This document shows positions 1 through 9,758 of a stretch of 9,758 bases of DNA, piece by piece. The notes beneath the pieces were generated by a model. It saw only the letters and a list, made by a program, of their open reading frames with translations, did not search any database and was not told where the DNA came from. This stretch comes from a virus (taxonomy: Duplodnaviria; Heunggongvirae; Uroviricota; Caudoviricetes). The stretch lies in IMG/VR virus record IMGVR_UViG_2663762948_000006, positions 1-9,758 of that record; one strand, given 5' to 3'. The number at the start of each line of letters is the position of its first letter. Position 1 is the first letter of the stretch. A program made the position numbers and the translations under genes.

Positions 1-219
1 TTACATCCACATAATTTGCTGCCCTGATGGCAACGGGTGCGGCCTTACGGCGTGGACTTCTCCCGGCTTCACGATGTATCGCTGTACCGACTCATAAGTG
101 ATGAACGTGGCGCTGCAATTCACGTTCTGGCACTGATGATAACGCTCTTTTGTCGTGTCAGTGATATAGCGGCTTGTACGCGCATGTGCGGCATGCTGGC
201 ATAAAGGACAATGAAACAT
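1..219 (-). CDS. ogr: Ogr late-gene transcriptional activator (zinc-finger, P2 Ogr / P4 Delta family), 72 aa
   Basis: Translation from ATG at 217-219 gives MFHCPLCQHAAHARTSRYITDTTKERYHQCQNVNC..., with the CxxC...CxxxxC zinc-finger spacing and the 72-aa length of P2 Ogr. The 93-aa ORF in the track begins at an upstream TTG (280-282) and is probably an over-extension. SD-like GGAAGAGG lies about 8 nt upstream of the ATG on the minus strand. Confidence 0.9.
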   Translation of the reverse strand: MFHCPLCQHAAHARTSRYITDTTKERYHQCQNVNCSATFITYESVQRYIVKPGEVHAVRPHPLPSGQQIMWM

Positions 220-253
220 CGCGAGCACCTCTTCCGGTTTTGTTGATGGTGCC

Positions 254-282
254 ATTTTAGTTAATTTATCCTTACAAAACAA
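254..282 (-). promoter_or_regulatory. Putative sigma70 promoter for ogr (-35 TTGTTT, 17-bp spacer, -10 TAAAAT, read on minus strand)
   Basis: By eye: reverse complement of 277-282 is TTGTTT and of 254-259 is TAAAAT, 17 bp apart, about 35 nt upstream of the ogr ATG. No experimental support. Confidence 0.3.
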
Positions 283-300
283 ACAGATAAAACAAAAACA

Positions 301-1464
301 TCACTCATCATCTTCTGTTTCGTACTCCACATCAGAAAGCCTGACCTCAAGCTCTAAGGACGTCGTGAAGCCGCTATTATTCAGAAAATGTGTCACCTTA
401 GTGATTGTCCAGTCCTGCTCGTCTATGACGCGCTTAAAGCCAGACACTTTGACCGGTGTTTCCGTGTAAATATCTGCCCGACCGGTAGCCAGGCTGATGG
501 AGAACTCCGCAACGCCCCGTTGCAGTTTATCCCACTTCGCCTGAGCGGCGCGCATGGCCTGCGCTTTCGTGGCATATACCGTGGTCAGGGCAAAAACGTT
601 GTCAGCCTCACCGGCCATGTATTCACCTTCACGCGCTTCCGGTACTTTAGGCGCTTTCTTCTGCCTGACCGGTTTCGCTTTCGGGTGCTCCAGTGCGCGC
701 AGGTGTTTCTCTTTCTTTTTGCGTTTCAGTTTTACCTTCTGCTTTTGCGGCTTCGGGTCTTTAGTGTGTAGCCATTTTGCCGTTACACCGGTGTAGGCTC
801 CACGGTCAGCAATCGCAAAATGATGGCGGTCGCCGTCGCTGCGGGTTATGGTGACCTGCGGGATTTTTTTACCGCTGGCCGTCACTCCCTGCCCCGCTTT
901 GAGAAACAACAGTTTTCCCATTTTTACCGACACCTCACCGCCGTTGCGTTCTGCAAGACGGGTCAGGAATTTCGCATCAGACTCCTGCGACTGGTCGATG
1001 TGTGGAATTTTTATTCCGGCCAGTGACGGAGCGACACTGGCTTCCAGCCTGTTACGGGTGGCTATCGCCTTAACAATCGCACCGAGCGTGGTGTCATGCC
1101 AGGAGCCTTCCCGGCGGGAATTGAGCGTCCCGCGAAAATCTGCACTCCGGGCGCGGATGGTGACTACATCCGGTGCGCCCCGGTGTTCAACCTCATCAAC
1201 GGTAAATTTCCCTTTGCATACCAGGGCAAAACCTTTCCAGCCGATATACACCGTCAGGACAGCGCCACGAACCGGCAGCCCGACCTGCCCGTCGGCATCG
1301 TTCAGTTCAATATCAAGCTGGTCAGCCTCAAAGCCCCGGTTATCCGTCAGGGTCATGCTCATCAGACGGTCGCTGATATTGCCGGTAATATCCCTGCTGT
1401 CGAGCATCAGCATGTAATCCGGCGTCAGCGTACTGCCTGCATCAAATGTCAGCGCATCCAGCAT
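301..1464 (-). CDS. D: P2-type tail protein gpD (late control gene D), 387 aa
   Basis: 387-aa ORF, the length of P2 gpD, lying directly upstream of ogr as in P2 (T-U-D-ogr). The start ATG (1462-1464) overlaps the stop of the upstream gene as TAATG on the minus strand. Contains a Lys-rich basic segment. Confidence 0.88.
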   Translation of the reverse strand: MLDALTFDAGSTLTPDYMLMLDSRDITGNISDRLMSMTLTDNRGFEADQLDIELNDADGQVGLPVRGAVLTVYIGWKGFALVCKGKFTVDEVEHRGAPDVVTIRARSADFRGTLNSRREGSWHDTTLGAIVKAIATRNRLEASVAPSLAGIKIPHIDQSQESDAKFLTRLAERNGGEVSVKMGKLLFLKAGQGVTASGKKIPQVTITRSDGDRHHFAIADRGAYTGVTAKWLHTKDPKPQKQKVKLKRKKKEKHLRALEHPKAKPVRQKKAPKVPEAREGEYMAGEADNVFALTTVYATKAQAMRAAQAKWDKLQRGVAEFSISLATGRADIYTETPVKVSGFKRVIDEQDWTITKVTHFLNNSGFTTSLELEVRLSDVEYETEDDE

Positions 1465-1943
1465 TATCCCGCCCCCGTCATACCTGTGAATCTGGTCGCC
1501 ATACTGCCGGCCTTACCGATGAGCGATTCCGCCTGTTTACCGATATCGCCATAAAGCGCGGCCAGTGATTCATCAACGCGGGTGAGTGACAGCGTAAAAT
1601 CAATTTTCCGGGGTGTGCCGTCTGCAAAGAAAATACTCCCTGTTTCACTCACCCTGCTGATGACATACATGCCGTAAATCATGCCGGTGCCATCCAGCAA
1701 CGGCCACGCCCGCCCCTCCTCTGCCATCAGCCTGAGCGTGGTCATCGTCAGCTTGCCGCCGGTCAGTTCGGGATAAAGCACACCGGCCAGCGTGATGTTT
1801 TCCTCACCCACACCGAGAAACTGAAAGGCATCCCGTTTACCGATACGGGAATTTGACGGCCAGCGATAATCTGATTCACGCTGCATGGTCTGGTGTGGCA
1901 GCGTCTGGCGCATAAAAACAAACATACCTAACGCGAGCATCAT
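1464..1943 (-). CDS. U: P2-type tail protein gpU, 159 aa
   Basis: 159-aa ORF, the length of P2 gpU, between the T remnant and D on the same strand; its stop overlaps the D start. Confidence 0.85.
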   Translation of the reverse strand: MMLALGMFVFMRQTLPHQTMQRESDYRWPSNSRIGKRDAFQFLGVGEENITLAGVLYPELTGGKLTMTTLRLMAEEGRAWPLLDGTGMIYGMYVISRVSETGSIFFADGTPRKIDFTLSLTRVDESLAALYGDIGKQAESLIGKAGSMATRFTGMTGAG

Positions 1944-1957
1944 TTTTCGTCACCTCC

Positions 1958-2743
1958 TTAACCGTCATGCATCATGCTGGCACGGGCGCGCACACGTTTA
2001 TCCCGCTCGTATTTTTCGAGCGCATCCTGTAACTGGCGGTCAAGCTGTGTCCCCGGCGCAGTCCCCCCCGTCAGGCTGATGTGATATTCGTTTTTACTCT
2101 GGTCTACATAAGAGCGGCCAGCCGGTGCCGTGACCGGCTGATAAGCCTGATAGCCTGCATAAGAGCTGGTCGCCGGAATATAGTCACCGGTACCATACGT
2201 GGCGGTATGAGTTCTGGCGGCGGTCTGGTCAAGTGTGTCTGACTCTTTGTTGATAACACCGAGTTTTTCCAGTACCCAGTCAATACCACTGCGCAGTTTG
2301 TTGAACGCATTAAGCGGCAGCATCAACGCGTCAGCCAGTGCCTGCCCGAACATGACGCCCGTGTCACGGCAACGGTTCAGGGTGTCCTGGGTGGCTTTGA
2401 CCGGGGCAATCAGGTTTTTAAACCACTGCCACGCGGCCTGTAACTTTTCGCCCAGCCAGTCAAAAACCGGTTTAAGTGGCGTGAACAGTTCCCCCACCGG
2501 CGCAAATGCCGCTTTCAGCCCTTCAACCACACCACCAAAGAATGCGCTGACAGGCTCCCAGTATTTACGGATAAGCAACGCACCGGCGACAATGGCAGCC
2601 ACCACGGCCACAACCGGCCAGCTAATCGCCCCGATGGCCGTCATAACGGCACTGCCAACCGTCGTGAAGATTGCCCCCATTGCGCCTGCTGCCGCGATGA
2701 TGGCATTGATGCCGGTGATACCCATTCTGGTCGGGTGAACTGT
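1958..2743 (-). pseudogene. T: Tape-measure protein gpT, 3'-terminal remnant (about 255-261 codons of roughly 815); 5' part deleted
   Basis: The ORF ends 14 nt upstream of U as in P2 (T then U). The translation has a long Ala/Gly/Ile-rich hydrophobic segment and a C-terminal region typical of tape-measure proteins. The frame is closed by an in-frame stop at 2744-2746, so only the C-terminal third is present. First ATG is at 2723-2725. Confidence 0.8.
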
Positions 2744-3615
2744 TCAACCGGGGACGCGCCAGCGCCGCCGAACGCGTGGAAATCGACGTCAGTCATAACG
2801 CCCTTGCCGGAGGTCTTCTCTGTGCGGACGGCCAGTGGCGGCAGATTGTCACCATTGAGGACGCACTGAAAGGCGGCTGCACGCTGTTCGACATTGAGCA
2901 GCTCAAACGCGAAAACAGCGCCGACGATTTTAAAAACCTGTTCATGTGTGAATTTGTTGACGACAAGGCGTCGGTATTCCCGTTCGAGGAGCTGCAACGC
3001 TGCATGGTCGACACGCTGGAAGAATGGGAAGACTATGCGCCGTTTGCCGCCAATCCGTTCGGCTCCCGCCCGGTATGGATTGGTTACGACCCGTCACACC
3101 GTGGCGACAGCGCCGGATGCGTGGTGCTGGCACCGCCGGTGGTGGCCGGTGGCAAATTCAGAATACTTGAGCGTCACCAGTGGAAAGGCATGGACTTTGC
3201 CACCCAGGCGGAATCCATCCGCAAACTCACCAAAAAATATAACGTCGAATACATCGGTATTGATGCCACCGGCCTCGGTGTCGGCGTGTTCCAGCTCGTG
3301 CGCTCGTTCTATCCCGCCGCGCGCGACATCCGCTACACACCGGAAATGAAAACCGCAATGGTGCTCAAGGCAAAAGACGTTATCCGCCGTGGCTGTCTGG
3401 AATATGACGTCAGCGCCACCGACATCACCAGCTCGTTTATGGCTATCCGCAAGACCATGACCAGCAGCGGACGCAGCGCCACCTATGAGGCCAGCCGCAG
3501 CGAGGAAGCCAGCCACGCCGACCTCGCCTGGGCGACCATGCACGCTCTGTTAAATGAGCCACTCACCGCCGGTATCAGCACCCCGCTGACATCCACCATT
3601 CTGGAGTTTTACTGA
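2719..3615 (+). pseudogene. P: Terminase large subunit gpP, 3'-terminal remnant (nuclease-domain half); 5' half deleted
   Basis: The frame is open only from 2719 (in-frame stop at 2716-2718) and its first start codon is GTG at 2776. The translation carries terminase nuclease-domain-like motifs (WIGYDPSHRGDSAG, EYIGIDATGLGVG). Its stop overlaps the Q start (TGATG at 3613-3617), matching the P-Q order of P2. P2 gpP is about 590 aa; only about 280-300 codons remain. Confidence 0.8.
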
Positions 3616-4649
3616 TGAGCAAGAAAAAAGGGAAAACACCGCAACCTGCGGCAAAAAAAATGACCGCCAGCGCCCCGAAAATGGAGGCATTCACCTTTGG
3701 CGAACCGGTGCCGGTACTCGACCGCCGTGACATTCTGGATTACGTCGAATGCATCAGTAACGGCAGATGGTATGAGCCACCGGTCAGCTTTACCGGTCTG
3801 GCAAAAAGCCTGCGTGCTGCCGTGCATCACAGCTCCCCGATTTACGTCAAACGTAATATTCTGGCTTCAACGTTTATCCCGCATCCGTGGCTTTCCCAGC
3901 AGGATTTCAGCCGCTTTGTGCTGGATTTTCTGGTGTTCGGTAATGCGTTTCTGGAAAAGCGTTACAGCACCACCGGTAAGGTCATCAGACTGGAAACCTC
4001 ACCGGCAAAATATACCCGCCGTGGCGTGGAGGAGGATGTTTACTGGTGGGTGCCGTCCTTCAACGAGCCGACAGCCTTCGCGCCCGGCTCCGTGTTTCAC
4101 CTGCTGGAGCCGGATATTAATCAGGAGCTGTACGGCCTGCCGGAATATCTCAGCGCCCTTAACTCTGCCTGGCTGAATGAGTCGGCCACGCTGTTCCGCC
4201 GCAAGTATTACGAAAACGGCGCTCATGCCGGATATATCATGTACGTCACCGATGCCGTGCAGGATCGCAACGATATCGAAATGCTTCGCGAAAACATGGT
4301 CAAGTCGAAAGGCCGCAACAACTTTAAAAATCTGTTTCTCTATGCCCCACAGGGGAAAGCCGACGGTATTAAAATTATCCCCCTCAGTGAAGTGGCAACG
4401 AAGGACGATTTTTTTAATATCAAAAAAGCCAGCGCCGCTGACCTGCTGGACGCACACCGCATCCCCTTTCAGTTGATGGGCGGCAAGCCGGAGAACGTCG
4501 GATCGCTGGGTGATATTGAAAAAGTGGCAAAGGTCTTTGTCCGCAATGAGCTTATCCCGCTACAGGACAGAATTCGGGAAATAAACGGCTGGCTCGGCCA
4601 GGAGGTCATCCGCTTTAAAAACTATTCACTGGAGACTGACAACGGCTGA
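3615..4649 (+). CDS. Q: Portal (capsid vertex) protein gpQ, 344 aa
   Basis: 344-aa ORF, the length of P2 gpQ, immediately next to cos as in P2. GGAG lies 8 nt upstream of the ATG. Translationally coupled to the P remnant. Confidence 0.9.
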   Translation: MSKKKGKTPQPAAKKMTASAPKMEAFTFGEPVPVLDRRDILDYVECISNGRWYEPPVSFTGLAKSLRAAVHHSSPIYVKRNILASTFIPHPWLSQQDFSRFVLDFLVFGNAFLEKRYSTTGKVIRLETSPAKYTRRGVEEDVYWWVPSFNEPTAFAPGSVFHLLEPDINQELYGLPEYLSALNSAWLNESATLFRRKYYENGAHAGYIMYVTDAVQDRNDIEMLRENMVKSKGRNNFKNLFLYAPQGKADGIKIIPLSEVATKDDFFNIKKASAADLLDAHRIPFQLMGGKPENVGSLGDIEKVAKVFVRNELIPLQDRIREINGWLGQEVIRFKNYSLETDNG

Positions 4650-4654
4650 ACATC

Positions 4655-4676
4655 GCCGCCTGCGGGCGGCTTTTTT
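4655..4676 (+). terminator. Rho-independent terminator downstream of Q
   Basis: GCCGCC (4655-4660), loop TGCG, GGCGGC (4665-4670), followed by TTTTTT (4671-4676), starting 6 nt after the Q stop codon. Confidence 0.55.
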
Positions 4677-4818
4677 ACACCCCGCCATCACGCCCTCACA
4701 CGCTCATCACCGCACAAAAAATCCCGCAGACACACCAACGCCTCAACGGGCAGACTAAGCGCCGTCACGACGCGCTCAGACGCTGAAAAAATAAAATCAG
4801 CACCACCGCCAGCGCGCA

Positions 4819-4837
4819 GTGCTTTCCCCGCCTCGCC
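4819..4837. other. P2/P4-type cos site (19-nt cohesive-end sequence)
   Basis: Plus strand 4819-4837 is gtgctttccccgcctcgcc, whose reverse complement GGCGAGGCGGGGAAAGCAC is the 19-nt P2 cohesive end as I recall it. The flanking sequence toward Q also matches my recollection of the P2 left end. Confidence 0.72.
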
Positions 4838-5000
4838 CGCCCGCTTCATGGAGCGCTTTTAATGCAGTTGCAATAACACATCAAAACATCGTCAATACAG
4901 GCGATTATAAACAATAAAAAACGATCGCTGCCGCATGCAAAATCATGCACTAAATGCATGTATTGAAGGGAAATTAGGAACGTGCTCGTTTGGGTCTAAA

Positions 5001-5897
5001 CTATGATTTCGACACAACTATTTTCCCCAAATCAAAACTAAATTCGACATCCCCATTTACGATATTTTCATTTGTCACATGCTCATCAAAAAGGTCACTA
5101 ACATCATACCCCGACTGAAACACTGGGCTCATGATAGCCACGTCGGTGAATGGCTCTTTTTCATGTGTTATATAATATTGACCATAAACATTTGCAGATT
5201 CATCTGCATCATTAAGACTAAGGACTGTTTTTGCTTTGACTTCAGGCATCAGAGAAAAATCAATATTATTCAACAAACACAGTAAGATGCCTGCTATTGC
5301 TCTCCTGTTATTATCAAGCGGCATCAAGTCCACCCCTGGAATCTCCTTCCGAAGCAATATTTTCAGCTCATTAAATAAAGAGTCGAACTTAATTGCGTCA
5401 GAACAATTGAGTAACGACAAAGCTTCATTAATCATTCGCCCTTCATTGGAACCAATTTCTGATGTTAACTTACAAACACCATCATTAACAATATACGATT
5501 TTTTGTTATTAAGCTTCTTCCTCGCTGTAATTACCTGCCCCCCCTTTAAGTTTAACTTCTCCTTTAAAAACTCATCACTGAACATTCTTAATTGCAGTCT
5601 GATTAATGTAGGTAAGTATTTCGGGTATTCATTTAACTCTGGTTTAACAGCATGCTTGTCGCGTCCAAATTTTAAACTTAATAACAAATGATTCCTCAGC
5701 ATGATATCCTTTATCTCGCCTTGATCTCTCCGATGATTATGGGCAACAAAACTCCCAATTTCAAAAATACACTTGGGCGCACTCGGCAACTCACGGGCCG
5801 TAACAAAAAGAACATCAATATCACTATCAGTGAAACTCCCATCCTTTAATCTTCTCAACACTCTCTCTATTCTTGAGATTGCTTTACTTTTATTCAT
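5001..5897 (-). CDS. Hypothetical protein, 298 aa; low-GC cargo gene in the P2 tin/old hotspot position; function unknown
   Basis: Long uninterrupted ORF with an ATG start (5895-5897) in a visibly AT-rich block that contrasts with the surrounding P2 backbone. Lys/Asn/Ile-rich composition. I see no Walker A, HNH, HExxH or other recognisable catalytic motif. It lies between cos and the replication gene, where P2 carries tin and old. Confidence 0.7.
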   Translation of the reverse strand: MNKSKAISRIERVLRRLKDGSFTDSDIDVLFVTARELPSAPKCIFEIGSFVAHNHRRDQGEIKDIMLRNHLLLSLKFGRDKHAVKPELNEYPKYLPTLIRLQLRMFSDEFLKEKLNLKGGQVITARKKLNNKKSYIVNDGVCKLTSEIGSNEGRMINEALSLLNCSDAIKFDSLFNELKILLRKEIPGVDLMPLDNNRRAIAGILLCLLNNIDFSLMPEVKAKTVLSLNDADESANVYGQYYITHEKEPFTDVAIMSPVFQSGYDVSDLFDEHVTNENIVNGDVEFSFDLGKIVVSKS

Positions 5898-6177
5898 GAC
5901 ATTCTTTCAACCTTAATCAATATTTAATTTAAACAAACCATTCTCATACGCCAACCATACCTGTGACACCTGACAAACCAAATAAAAACAAAGGTACAGC
6001 GGATATTGGTATGTACAGCTATATTACACATAAACTCATGTTAGTAACATAAGATCTTCTTGTGAATATTTGTAATTTATTAGTTCACCAACATTAATCT
6101 TTCCAACCGTTATAAATCCAATCATATGCTGATACTCAAATGACGGCCAACTACCACCTCGCGCTGTTCGTTGTTCC

Positions 6178-6220
6178 CTCCAGCAGCACTGGAAGCATGT
6201 TTCAGTACTGCTGGGGTTTT
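6178..6220. terminator. Stem-loop (about 12-14 bp stem, one mismatch) followed by a T-run on the plus strand; possible bidirectional terminator
   Basis: CCAGCAGCACTG (6180-6191) pairs with CAGTACTGCTGG (6203-6214) around an 11-nt loop, then GGTTTT (6215-6220). It sits immediately after the stop of orf67 (6224) on the minus strand, but the U-tract is on the plus-strand side. Confidence 0.3.
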
Positions 6221-6223
6221 CTA

Positions 6224-6427
6224 TCAACAACGTGGTAGCAGTGCAATTTTAGACTGTTCTATATCGTTAAACCGCACGTAATTATCCCGGACTATTTCGG
6301 CACACCCGACCAACTCGTCGGGCGTCAGATTTTCGTTGACCATAATCTGCTGTAGACGGTGAACAATAGCCATCAGCTTGATATTTTTAGTGTTATGTTG
6401 CGGTATCTCGCCTGGTATTCTGTGCAT
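6224..6427 (-). CDS. Hypothetical small protein, 67 aa (from ATG at 6425-6427)
   Basis: The ATG overlaps the TAA stop of the upstream DUF3850-like gene (TAATG on minus strand), suggesting translational coupling. No recognisable motif. The track ORF (6224..6439) starts at an upstream GTG. Confidence 0.35.
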   Translation of the reverse strand: MHRIPGEIPQHNTKNIKLMAIVHRLQQIMVNENLTPDELVGCAEIVRDNYVRFNDIEQSKIALLPRC

Positions 6428-6882
6428 TATCCAAGCCACCCGTTTTGCTTTGCACGCTCAATCTGTTCATCTGAATAGTTCCATGCTCCATCCGTGGCAA
6501 CCATTGCCCCGCCAGACATCCCCGTCTCTGGTTCATACATAACAGCAAGGCCGAGCTGATGCATAATTTCATGATTAATTCTGAATACCAGACCACGCTC
6601 ACTAAGTTCTTTCCAGTTCACAATCTCATATGCGCCTGTATTAAGCTGCTCAATACTTAGCAAGACATAATCTTCCAGCCAGTCTGACAGGTCAGTAACA
6701 TCTGTTATCCGGGCTTCAACCTTTCGCCCCGTATACACACCCTGCACCCATTCATGCAAAATCAACGTGTCCCCGCGCTCATAATTACGGTCATTTTTCC
6801 GAAACTCTGCGCGTTTCTTTCCTTCCAGCACAAGGTCGAAATATTTTGCGTGCAGCTTTACCTCGTGAATTTTTGCCATCAT
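6427..6882 (-). CDS. DUF3850/ASCH-like (PUA-fold) domain protein with a C-terminal HExxH motif, about 151 aa
   Basis: The N-terminal region (KIHEVKLHAKYFDLVLEGKKRAEFRKNDRNYERGDTLILHEW...YTGR) resembles the DUF3850/ASCH-like family as I recall it. The C-terminal part contains HEIMH (6559-6573), an HExxH zinc-binding-like motif. The likely start is the ATGATG at 6877-6882, which overlaps the TGA stop of A (6879-6881); the track ORF extends 11 codons further upstream into A. Confidence 0.65.
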   Translation of the reverse strand: MMAKIHEVKLHAKYFDLVLEGKKRAEFRKNDRNYERGDTLILHEWVQGVYTGRKVEARITDVTDLSDWLEDYVLLSIEQLNTGAYEIVNWKELSERGLVFRINHEIMHQLGLAVMYEPETGMSGGAMVATDGAWNYSDEQIERAKQNGWLG

Positions 6883-8729
6883 GTCCACTCCATTACTGTT
6901 GAGAATCCCGGCCACTCATCAGCGACCGGATACGTGAATTTTTTCCCGTCATAATTTACAGTCGCGCCACGCGCCAGCGCCTCAAGCTCCCATCGCTGCG
7001 GCCTGATACCGTTCTGAGCAAGGTCAACGCGGATACGGGTGATTTGCATTCGTTCCGACCGGGTCAGTCTGGCAGATGGTGCAATTTCATGCGGTTTTAA
7101 CGGGCTTCCGTTTCTTTGCTGACGGTTTGGCGTTCTCATGTCGTATTTTAATGCGCCCCTGAGCGCCCTCACGACCTCCGGTTCATTCCATTCAATAACA
7201 CCGTCATCAACCAGATTAAGCACTGCTGCGGCGTGCTCAGAAGGTGTGGGAGCCGGTAACGAAGTATCACCACCGGTGAGCTTTCCACAGTTATTGACAG
7301 GACTCCGAGGCGCGGCGATGCCGCTTTTTAAAGTCAAAGGCTCAACGACCGGAACTTTCGGCACAATGCGCCAGTCCGTCGTTCTGGTGATATGAATATG
7401 ACGCGCGCCGAGATGCGGCGCGTAAATGCCGACCACTCTCTCGACTTCTTCCTCGTACTCGTTAACGTCATCCGACGGGCTACGGGCAACCCTGACAGTC
7501 TGACAATCGCGCGGGACATTTGCCCCACCCTGCGCGCTGATATACAACGCAAAATCACCACTGTCTGCGGCAGCGCGAGCAGCCTCGACGCGTTCGTCAA
7601 ACTCATCAGCAATACTGACGCCGCGAGGCAATTTGCGTAGTTCACGGTAAGCCCCCATTGTCGGCAGTCCAACCGTTTTAAATTGCGGGATGCGCCACGT
7701 TGACGCCCATGCGGTAACAGCCGCGGCAGTATCTTTAAGCGGCTTACCGGTATCGTTATCGAGCTGACCATCCAGTGCATAGCCGTCGATATTTTTTGAA
7801 ATGTATTTCGCGATATATCCCGCAGCACCGCCCCGGTTAAGGTGCTTTGCCTGAAAACGGTTTCGCGCGGCTCCTCTTTCGTCACCATCCTCTTTGAGCG
7901 CATAGCGACGCATGATTTCGATAATCTGGTTACGCTGGCGTGGATTACAAAAAAGCATCATATGCCAGTGCGGCGTTCCGTCGTGGTGTGGCTCGACGAC
8001 ACGCAAACCGTAGACCTGTAAATCATTATCCTTGAATGCCGTGCGCATCAGGCTCCAGATGCGGCAGAGATAACGCTGCGCATCCTTTGGATTAAATGCC
8101 TCATCGTTCCAGCCGTGATTAAGCTGAACGGTTTTACTTTCGCCTTTTCTGACCTGACGAGTCGGGTGATACTTTGACGGCGCGGTCAGCGTGATAAACA
8201 TCCCCACATCACCCTCTGCGGCGGCGTAACGCTCAATACCGGCAATGGTGTTCATCAGCTCCATCCGGCGAATTTCAGGATTAGAAATACTGCCCATCAC
8301 CTTACTGATAAGGTCGATGCGCTCGCCGGTTTCCCTGTTTTCAAGGTCACACGATTTAAGAAATTCCAGATTTGCCTGGCGGCGCGCACGCACATCACGA
8401 ATGGCGTGTTTACTGGCATACATCATGAAAAGCTGCGATGAGATACGGGCGGCAAACTTTTTCAGCTCCTTGTCATTCATTCCCGGCAGGCGCGCATAGT
8501 GGTCACGCTCTGCCAGAAACAGCAACGACGCGTCGGTGTTCATTTCATGGCGCTGATTCACACGCTCAATGCGCGGCCATAAACGACGCTGAAAAGTGGA
8601 TGTGAGAAAATAAAACCCGTGCACCGGGCTTTTATTACGCCGGATGTAGTCATAGCGTGAAGTAAACAGCGAGCGCAAAAAGTAAGGCAGGCGATTTATC
8701 GTGGATAACTCTATATAAAAATTACATTT
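6879..8729 (-). pseudogene. A: Rolling-circle replication initiator gpA, 5'-truncated (about 600-616 C-terminal codons of 761 retained)
   Basis: The translation contains the paired-tyrosine motif GYIAKYISK (Y288 and Y292 of the track ORF). P2 gpA is 761 aa with active-site tyrosines that I recall as Y450 and Y454; the offset of 162 plus 599 equals 761, so the C-terminus aligns exactly. The frame is closed by a stop at 8730-8732, the first start in frame is TTG (8676-8678) with no SD, and no B, cox or C genes lie upstream. Confidence 0.8.
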
Positions 8730-8755
8730 TCACCATTTGCCACCAAGATGGTGAA
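8729..8755. promoter_or_regulatory. Nested inverted repeat immediately upstream of int (possible operator or protein-binding site)
   Basis: TTCACCA (8729-8735) and TGGTGAA (8749-8755) are 7-bp inverted arms 13 bp apart; nested inside is CACCA-AGA-TGGTG (8741-8753). It lies 23 nt upstream of the int ATG within the A'/int junction region. Function is inferred only. Confidence 0.25.
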
Positions 8756-8777
8756 TACAGCGCCGGAGGGCTTTCTT

Positions 8778-9758
8778 ATGGCAATTAAGAAGCTCGATGA
8801 TGGTCGCTATGAAGTGGACATTAGACCTCGCGGTCGCGACGGAAAACGCATCCGCAGGAAATTTGAAAGAAAAGCTGAAGCACTAGCATTTGAGCGATAC
8901 ACAATCGCCAATGCCAGTCAGAAAGAATGGGGAGGCCAGCGAGCAGACCGCCGAACTTTGACAGAATTGCTCGACATCTGGTGGAAATACCACGGGCAAA
9001 ACCACGAGCATGGGACAAAAGAGTTTAATCATCTGCTCAAAACCATCAGCGGCATAGGTGATATACCAGTGAGTCGGATGAACAAAAGGGCTTTGATGGA
9101 TTATCGCTCCATGCGACTACGTGATGGCATCAGTGCTGCAACGATAAACCGCGACATGTACCGATTATCCGGCATGTTCACAAAATTAATTCAATTGGAT
9201 GAATTTTCCGGGCAACACCCAATTCACGGACTGCCGCCACTGACGGAGGCTAACCCTGAAATGACGTTCCTGGAAAAAGCAGAAATCGAAAAACTGCTAA
9301 ATGTTTTGACTGGTGATGACTTACTTGTCGCGCTTTTATGTCTGAGCACTGGAGGAAGGTGGACGGAAGTTGCCACGCTAAAACCAGCACAGATTACAAG
9401 TTGCAGGGTTACCTTCCTGAAAACCAAAAACGGTAAAAAGCGAACAGTGCCGATTTCTGAGGAACTGGAGAAAAAAGTTAAAGAGGAGGCCAGCGCCAAA
9501 TTGTTCAAGGTAGATTATGAGAAGTTTTGCGGGATTTTACGCAGAGTGAAACCTGATATACCTCCCAATCAGGCAACCCACATTCTGCGGCATACATTCG
9601 CAAGCCATTTCATGATGAATGGGGGCAACATAATTGCACTGCAACAGATTCTGGGGCATGCGAGCATTCAGCAGACAATGACCTATGCGCACCTTGCGCC
9701 TGACTACCTGCAGAACGCCGTCGCTCTGAATCCACTAAAAGGCGGAGTGACGTTATAA
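8778..9758 (+). CDS. int: Tyrosine recombinase, P2-type integrase (326 aa from ATG 8778; alternative start ATG 8748 gives 336 aa)
   Basis: N-terminus MAIKKLDDGRYEVDIRP... matches my recollection of P2-family Int. The C-terminal catalytic region carries the tyrosine-recombinase signature (HILRHTFASHFMMNGG...LGHASIQQTMTYAHL). GGAGGG lies 8 nt upstream of ATG 8778; the upstream ATG at 8748 has no SD. Confidence 0.9.
   Translation: MAIKKLDDGRYEVDIRPRGRDGKRIRRKFERKAEALAFERYTIANASQKEWGGQRADRRTLTELLDIWWKYHGQNHEHGTKEFNHLLKTISGIGDIPVSRMNKRALMDYRSMRLRDGISAATINRDMYRLSGMFTKLIQLDEFSGQHPIHGLPPLTEANPEMTFLEKAEIEKLLNVLTGDDLLVALLCLSTGGRWTEVATLKPAQITSCRVTFLKTKNGKKRTVPISEELEKKVKEEASAKLFKVDYEKFCGILRRVKPDIPPNQATHILRHTFASHFMMNGGNIIALQQILGHASIQQTMTYAHLAPDYLQNAVALNPLKGGVTL

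Follow-up and report, generated by a model that had tools for sequence, protein, structure and literature searches.

A defective P2-like prophage with a recurrent deletion breakpoint in the terminase gene P

Defective relatives of phage P2 are familiar residents of Escherichia coli genomes, e.g., the ogrK/D' remnant of K-12 and the remnants listed as pseudogenes in RefSeq. Prophage decay is usually seen as random deletion filtered by selection, and short-homology illegitimate recombination, or alternative end joining, is known in E. coli. We analyzed a DNA stretch of 9,758 nt from a tailed virus (IMG/VR record IMGVR_UViG_2663762948_000006, positions 1–9,758; the whole stretch is called the window below). 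The window is a defective P2-like prophage that has undergone an internal illegitimate deletion, and this deletion is not mediated by an insertion sequence (IS) or an integrase, nor is the window a phage satellite. Here, we describe the junction left by the deletion, at which the remnant T' of the tape-measure gene T meets the remnant P' of the large terminase gene P, and the recurrence of its P-side end in other P2-like prophages.

Like the known defective P2-like prophages, the window has kept the P2 gene order at 97–99.7% identity and has lost its morphogenesis genes internally, so that ogr-D-U and Q-cos-cargo-A-int remain as its two ends. In E. coli isolateD, E423, F247 and AST46, the Prokaryotic Genome Annotation Pipeline lists equivalent fragments as incomplete genes for the tape measure, sheath, terminase or portal. 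The window differs from these prophages in having its own T/P junction and two additional deletions. The junction also resembles the products of short-homology recombination in E. coli, i.e., it is collinear, with 2–5 nt of microhomology and no filler, and needs no mobile element. In contrast to those products, however, one P end recurs to within 2 bases in many events that appear to be independent. Random breaks would not predict such reuse of an end, which is more reminiscent of the deletion hot spots seen where replication arrests or enzymes cleave. One fixed end combined with variable ends on one side is also typical of deletions adjacent to IS elements or transposons, but here the 12 junctions carry no element and the fixed end lies within a phage coding sequence. 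T and P abut directly, and an element was found neither in the window nor in the 11 other junction classes; we hence rejected IS-mediated adjacent deletion. Literature searches for a described P2 deletion hot spot returned nothing relevant and, as far as these searches show, the recurrence of the P breakpoint is undescribed.

Structure of the T/P junction

BLAST comparison with phage P2 (NC_001895) showed that the window is a P2-like prophage lying in the orientation opposite to the P2 map. It is assigned to the P2-like phages (Peduovirus) by nucleotide collinearity over late and early genes, by its cos sequence and by ogr. Positions 1–2723 correspond to P2 24254–21532 with 99.7% identity and 8 mismatches, whereas positions 2719–4837 correspond to P2 2117–1 with 97.1% identity, followed by the cos overlap. 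An earlier reading made from the sequence only had proposed that the 3' third of T is joined here to the 3' half of P. This was borne out as a collinear deletion, with about 763 of the 2448 nt of T and 897 of the 1773 nt of P retained.

Alignment with P2 placed the breakpoint to the base. At the join, the parental T sequence reads ...GCCGGTGATA/ACCGG and the parental P sequence ...GACGCCTA/CCCGTTCTGG, and the window reads ...GCCGGTGATA/CCCATTCTGG. The strict overlap between T and P, i.e., the microhomology, is 2 nt, TA (positions 2719–2720), with no filler and no IS. The lost stretch extends from P2 2118 to about 21533 (~19.4 kb) and comprised genes O, N, M, L, X, Y, K, lysABC, R, S, orf30, V, W and J, as well as I, H, G, fun(Z), FI, FII and E/E', together with the 5' portions of P (half of the gene) and T (two-thirds). 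As a collinear join with short shared bases and no inserted DNA, the junction is a microhomology-mediated illegitimate deletion.

The reading frames end where the sequence-only reading had placed their limits. On the plus strand, an in-frame TGA at 2716–2718 directly precedes the P frame, which stays open from 2719 onward; on the minus strand, the T frame reaches no further than 2743, beyond which lies a TGA at 2746–2744. The alternative that these open reading frames (ORFs) are full-length genes of other families was ruled out by the P2 alignment and by the coordinates of the Pfam matches. P' covers the Terminase_6N profile of the ATPase domain only at positions 143–215 (of 215) and the Terminase_6C profile of the nuclease domain completely; because Terminase_6N is matched only from position 143, P' is a gene fragment rather than a complete member of some other family. 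The sequence-only reading had missed the recurrence of the P-side breakpoint, the two further deletions and the ordinary allelic origin of the ATG that opens the T' ORF.

The exact T/P junction of the window was absent from 5,426 complete E. coli genomes, and its pattern was absent from species-representative genomes. Exact-protein look-ups for T' and P' gave no match, and scans of metagenomes and viral sequences returned only other junction classes or intact P alleles, never the window junction. Taken alone, the junction is ordinary, i.e., it reflects routine decay of a P2-like prophage. We are confident that it represents one simple deletion of ~19.4 kb inside an integrated P2-like prophage, with a recurrent breakpoint as its P-side end.

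A recurrent breakpoint at Tyr293 of P

The P-side end, C/TA/CCC at Tyr293 (slashes enclosing the TA), recurs within 2 bases in 12 junction classes, the window included (Table 1). The classes were collected by searching for TACCC(G/A)TTCTGG... preceded by a base other than C and for truncated-terminase proteins, and the AST46 remnant was added later. P' begins at TACCC in all classes except one, which begins at CCC (L031). The partner ends span genes N to D (P2 4798–23727). In isolateD and its relatives (seven genomes), for example, a T'/P' junction is found in which P' again measures exactly 897 nt and T' is 381 nt longer than that of the window. All junctions are collinear deletions, with no inversions among them. 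Nine of the 11 usable partners carry TA at the crossover, compared with a TA frequency of 0.044 in P2 (binomial 3e-11). Moreover, the deleted side of the partner often reads TAnCC (5/11), like the TACCC of P, with TACCC in L025 and TACC in AST46.

In a less biased sample, i.e., close protein matches that covered the whole C-terminal query, 5 of about 8 rearranged N-termini start at Tyr293 or Pro294, and two further rearranged N-termini break within 7 codons of Tyr293. We conclude that P2-like prophages have broken recurrently at C/TA/CCC, the Tyr293 position of P. The site is a strong local hot spot, though not the sole route of decay.

Mirror junctions, in which the 5' half of P is the part retained, also cluster here (Table 1). 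One of them lies on a contig of 5.7 Mb (P0143), where a truncated P runs to ...AYPFW and then switches to the ~110 nt at the right end of IS621, the join being 12 nt from the hot spot. The P0143 N-terminus is fused to non-P sequence, which we take to be a fragment of an ISAs1-type transposase. An IS110-family element has thus, in one genome or more, taken part in rearrangements 12 nt from the hot spot. The IS621 copy in L205 (1326–2604) has a flank that is not P2.

Several points speak against a privileged role of this site. The class list stems partly from a pattern search that required the P' start, and the number of 12 classes therefore overstates the share of the site in P2 deletions. Such remnants are rare; 19 of 1635 complete E. 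coli genome records lack a near-full 601-nt test segment around the site. Remnants with other ends exist as well, namely FI'/P' in E423 (1446 nt) and FI'/Q' in F247. Synonymous diversity in windows over codons 286–299 lay at percentiles 10–89 among 86 representative P alleles, and we hence rejected a conserved DNA element. An unusual single-stranded DNA fold at the site was likewise rejected (z −0.1 to −0.8), and the hairpin ACCCG-N7-CGGGT at the break is disrupted in the alleles of the window and of L027. No enzyme, motif or structure was found that accounts for the P site. Finally, there remains a small chance that the window, isolateD and L026, which have the same locus or integrase type, share ancestry and have recombined since.

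A breakpoint common, to within 2 bases, to many seemingly independent remnants would mean that the decay of one of the most abundant E. coli prophage families is partly directed by a specific DNA site. The cause, be it a nuclease, a topoisomerase, a REP (repetitive extragenic palindrome)-directed enzyme or a replication barrier, would be testable, and a P' of exactly 897 nt would offer annotators a signature for P2 remnants.

In two more distant homologs of P, the reading frame leaves P at Ala292/Tyr293: in P0157 (71% identical) it continues into foreign sequence, and in P0187 (Halomonas, 59%) it departs via a 1-nt frameshift. These cases may reflect coincidence, sequencing error or a fragility that reaches beyond the E. 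coli alleles.

Possible origins of the shared end

The P site looks like a break- or stall-prone position that is repaired by microhomology. A DNA end would form preferentially at C/TA/C, either as a strand break or as the 3' end of a stalled nascent strand, and would be preserved almost whole, with 0–2 nt lost. This end would pair through TA, often through TAnCC (2–5 nt), with a variable site in the late region, and the DNA between the paired sites would be deleted. A site-specific cut or strand exchange and a replication stall fit about equally well.

It is possible, if only tentatively so, that a site-specific enzyme, i.e., a nuclease, topoisomerase or recombinase, cuts or exchanges strands at C/TA/C in P. 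Examples would be a REP-directed activity, a homing-type nuclease of a rival phage or DNA gyrase, with the deletions as products or by-products. The end is precise to 0–2 nt in 12 classes, either side of the site can be retained, and the retained ends (TACCC, CCC and ...GCCTA(C)) fit a 2-nt staggered cut at TA, which is nearly always present in the partners. Left of the break, intact P shares ACGCTGGCGC and GCCTAC with the E. coli REP consensus (PMC11208160). This flank is deleted in the window; in the intact prophage L006 (9076–9112, the STLAHDAY codons) it is REP-like, with GTAG and a weak bulged hairpin on the opposite strand. The REP-associated tyrosine transposase (RAYT, TnpA-REP) of E. 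coli cuts at CT 5' or 3' of the REP on the strand that it binds, the GTAG strand (PMC8266576). At the P site this strand rule is violated: GTAG and the hairpin lie on the P2 plus strand with no CT nearby, and the CT of the break is on the other strand. Processing by RAYT was therefore rejected.

The same flank and break invite comparison with bridge-RNA recombination by IS621. The P site agrees with the natural IS621 target ATCAGGCCTAC in 8 of its 11 positions, CT/A of GCCTAC falls at the core position so that the break lies at the CT core of the target, and the flank is again REP-like. Moreover, IS621 insertion experiments are reported to have yielded rare genomic deletions and inversions between observed insertion sites (PMC11208160). 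In contrast to IS621 products, however, the match stops at 8/11 positions, the partners resemble neither target nor donor, and no left-end or right-end IS621 junction abuts the P site in complete E. coli genomes. We thus rejected IS621/IS110 bridge recombination as well.

No 18-mer similar to the P site was found elsewhere in P2, and ori, att and cos show no likeness at ≥13/18 positions; the resemblance to the nick site of gpA (CGCCT) was too weak to count. A Chi-protected end was rejected, as the whole P2 genome (L002) is without Chi (GCTGGTGG) in either orientation. A candidate nuclease gene was not found either. Window positions 2729–2739 (TGGTCGGGTGA) match TNNNCGGGNNA, a putative recognition motif of the Gabija nuclease GajA; they lie 10–20 nt right of the break, off the peak. 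That C/TA/CCC at Tyr293, in its REP-like context, is cut or recombined site-specifically by a cellular or rival-element activity, which would repeatedly initiate prophage-killing deletions, appears rather doubtful to us. If true, such an activity would inactivate and domesticate prophages by a sequence-directed route not described before.

With the same reserve, the deletions could be ascribed to template switching during replication. The polymerase would stall in the 3-nt linker that separates the REP-like hairpin (left) from the small ACCCG/CGGGT hairpin (right), and the nascent 3' end, ...GGGTA, would re-anneal further along by 2–5 nt and skip the intervening DNA. This might occur during A-dependent rolling-circle replication, which proceeds from ori through cos and Q to P. 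The resemblance of the deleted partner side to the retained P (TAnCC, as given above) is what would be expected for a realigned ...GG(G)TA. All 12 P'-retaining classes delete along the leading-strand direction of P2, all partners lie inside the late region, and the restriction to collinear deletions agrees with such a mechanism. However, the hairpins are weak, the fold is unexceptional and the small stem is broken in two alleles. Jumps of 3–21 kb far exceed classical slippage, and the mirror classes, one of which leads into host DNA (L034), misfit a pure phage-replication model.

Deletion at a secondary site of the integrase was dismissed, since only 2 nt are shared compared with the 6–8 bp of overlap needed, likeness to the att core is lacking and remnants with the hot spot lie at more than one chromosomal locus, i.e., in the fieF/cpxP classes and in AST46.

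Alternatively, one ancient deletion might have been inherited, its left side eroded later and its arms overwritten by recombination with incoming P2-like phages. We regard this as very unlikely. It is true that isolateD and L026 flank the fieF/cpxP locus and that the window has the integrase type of this site, and that the P' alleles of L028 and L029 are identical despite different partners. However, the P' sequences of the classes show 13–26 nt pairwise differences per 850 nt and, except for L028 and L029, each class is nearer to an intact allele (4–11 nt) than to the other classes. Within 30 nt of the junction, no fewer than four alleles can be told apart, with one allele difference only 4 nt away from it, and the arms of the window, isolateD and L026 have diverged by ~3% on both sides. 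Moreover, each later erosion would have to stop exactly at the old junction, which would itself require a hot spot.

State of the remnant and its other genes

Table 1. Junction classes and mirror junctions at the P site, and features of the window (window coordinates unless marked P2)
Feature	Position or partner	Strand	Record or basis
Junction class, partner in N	P2 4798		L028
Junction class, partner in S	P2 9163		L030
Junction class, partner in V	P2 10878		L206, complete genome of E. coli AST46
Junction class, partner in J	P2 11891		L029
Junction class, partner in FII-E spacer	P2 19399		L022/L024
Junction class, partner in T	P2 ~21146		L001 (isolateD + 6 genomes)
Junction class, partner in T	P2 ~21296		L026
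Junction class, partner in T	P2 21535		Window
Junction class, partner in T	P2 21978		L025
Junction class, partner in D	P2 23476		L027
Junction class, partner in D	P2 23727		L031 (P' from CCC)
Mirror junction	...GCCTAC joined to later part of P		L032
Mirror junction	...GCCTAC joined to Q; 13/16 nt homeology ending in CTAC		L033
Mirror junction	...CCCGTTC joined to host DNA beside VgrG gene		L034
Mirror junction	...TTCTGG joined to right end of IS621 copy		P0143
ogr, late-gene activator, intact	1–219	−	99.7% to P2 24036–24254
Gene D, tail protein, intact	301–1464	−	Pfam Phage_GPD; protein identical to D of many intact prophages
Gene U, tail protein, intact	1464–1943	−	Pfam Phage_P2_GpU, E 4e-44
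T', last ~763 nt (31%) of tape-measure gene T (2448 nt), native start and PF promoter missing	1958–2720	−	Collinear with P2 22297–21534
Deletion junction, shared TA	2719–2720		T GGTGATA/ACC, P GCCTA/CCC; no inserted bases, no IS
P', last 897 nt (51% of 1773), codons 293–590, of large terminase gene P	2719–3615	+	P2 2117–1221
Gene Q, portal, intact	3615–4649	+	Pfam Phage_portal; protein identical to Q of intact prophages
tQ terminator-like hairpin	4655–4670	+	Matches P2 tQ annotation
cos cohesive-end sequence GTGCTTTCCCCGCCTCGCC, intact	4819–4837		BLAST and direct reading
298-aa cargo gene, old/tin slot	5001–5897	−	Collinear with L006 and L012
orf91-like DUF3850/ASCH gene	6427–6879	−	Pfam matches; collinear with L006 12813–13265
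A', replication initiator without first ~53 codons, in-frame 297-nt internal deletion	6879–8708	−	P2 30539–28778 and 28484–28193
Second large junction, A' (P2 28193) to last 7 nt of repressor gene C	8702–8708		BLAST and collinearity
Integrase, 326-aa type found beside cpxP, appears intact	8778–9758	+	Pfam Int_N, Phage_integrase

The window is a defective, cryptic prophage in which O through E, half of P, two-thirds of T, B, cox and C are absent and A is truncated. With the 5' half of P and all genes for head, lysis, baseplate, fibre, sheath and tube deleted, it can neither make particles nor lyse the cell. The early region has suffered the two further deletions. Window 6659–8420 corresponds to P2 30539–28778 (97.3%) and window 8417–8708 to P2 28484–28193 (98.6%), with the 297-nt in-frame loss in A between them at 8417–8420. 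The breaks of this loss are identical against five other prophages, and A' matches the Phage_GPA profile only from position 107. The A'/C' join eliminates orf80–83, B, cox and C. Window position 8702 equals position 16835 of the record L008, where gene C occupies 16548–16841. Since A is damaged and B, cox and C are lost, the remnant is unable to replicate or excise by P2's own functions.

Extra short-overlap deletions were also seen in other P2-like remnants (L024 1452–1455, L025 1808–1811, L031 1282–1284, L032 1864–1868 and several in L033), with Q 892 to A 28205, U 22674 to D 23070, P 1501 to Q 496 and O 4130 to H 12711 as examples. The A-gene end at 28205 lies 12 nt from the A end of the window at 28193.

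That the remnant is a working, satellite-like mini-P2 mobilized by helper P2-like phages is scarcely credible. In favour of this reading are the intact cos, Q, int and ogr and the identity of D and Q with their counterparts in functional phages. Against it stand the truncation and internal deletion of A, the loss of B, cox and C, and the fact that the exact junction was found in no other record searched. For the same losses in A, B and cox, and in spite of the cos sequence, we rejected a phage satellite of the P4-like or helper-dependent kind.

The sequence-only reading had also noted the consequences of the junction for expression. As it had stated, the region between P and T is gone, including the PP/PO, PV and PF promoter regions as annotated in P2, and both remnants lack their native promoters, i.e., the late operons are deprived of their Ogr-dependent promoters. 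It had further held that Q would need a promoter created at the junction or read-through. The loss of the native promoter stands, but a promoter made by the junction was not detected: a scan of positions 1900–5000 for the sigma-70 consensus gave 0 promoter-like sites, compared with 1.9 expected by shuffling. As this stretch contains no sigma-70-like promoter, P'-Q and T'-U-D are without an evident promoter, and both are probably silent. With the Ogr promoters gone and no replacement found, the junction is, as far as the sigma-70 consensus can tell, a scar without a function of its own.

The T' ORF opens near the junction at an ATG (2725–2723, minus strand) that depends on the A at 2724. This A corresponds to a synonymous P allele, CCA for CCG (Pro294), which also occurs in intact P genes, and window 2719–3020 is identical at 302 of 302 positions to intact P genes with CCCATTC from several genomes. 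Because the base belongs to a normal P allele, the ATG is a chance by-product and not an adaptation. The Q and D proteins are identical to those of many intact prophages, with identical copies of Q in 249 blocks of the indexed contig collection; hence either the damage is evolutionarily recent or the arms were refreshed by recombination. In the annotation of E. coli isolateD, this same 219-nt ogr gene bears the name ogrK.

The integrase region is 99.8% identical to L008 16835–17891. In L006, L008 and E423, the integrase of the 326-aa type adjoins cpxP/cpxR/cpxA. Judged by this sequence match, the window prophage belongs to the fieF/cpxP-site integrase type, like those of E. coli isolateD and E423.

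The 298-aa cargo protein gave no match in Pfam or PADLOC. In the intact prophages L006 and L012, a 298-aa gene without a Pfam match fills the equivalent slot, and the window is collinear with both over this region at 98.5%. The gene could be an uncharacterized defence or moron gene. E. coli F247 has an 897-nt hypothetical gene in the same old/tin cargo position.

The left arm of the window (ogr-D-U-T') is 99.7% identical to P2, and the right arm is ~97% identical to P2 and 98.5% to other prophages; the integrase is not that of P2. From the unequal identities of the arms and the non-P2 integrase, it follows that the parent phage was a mosaic or that the arms have different histories.

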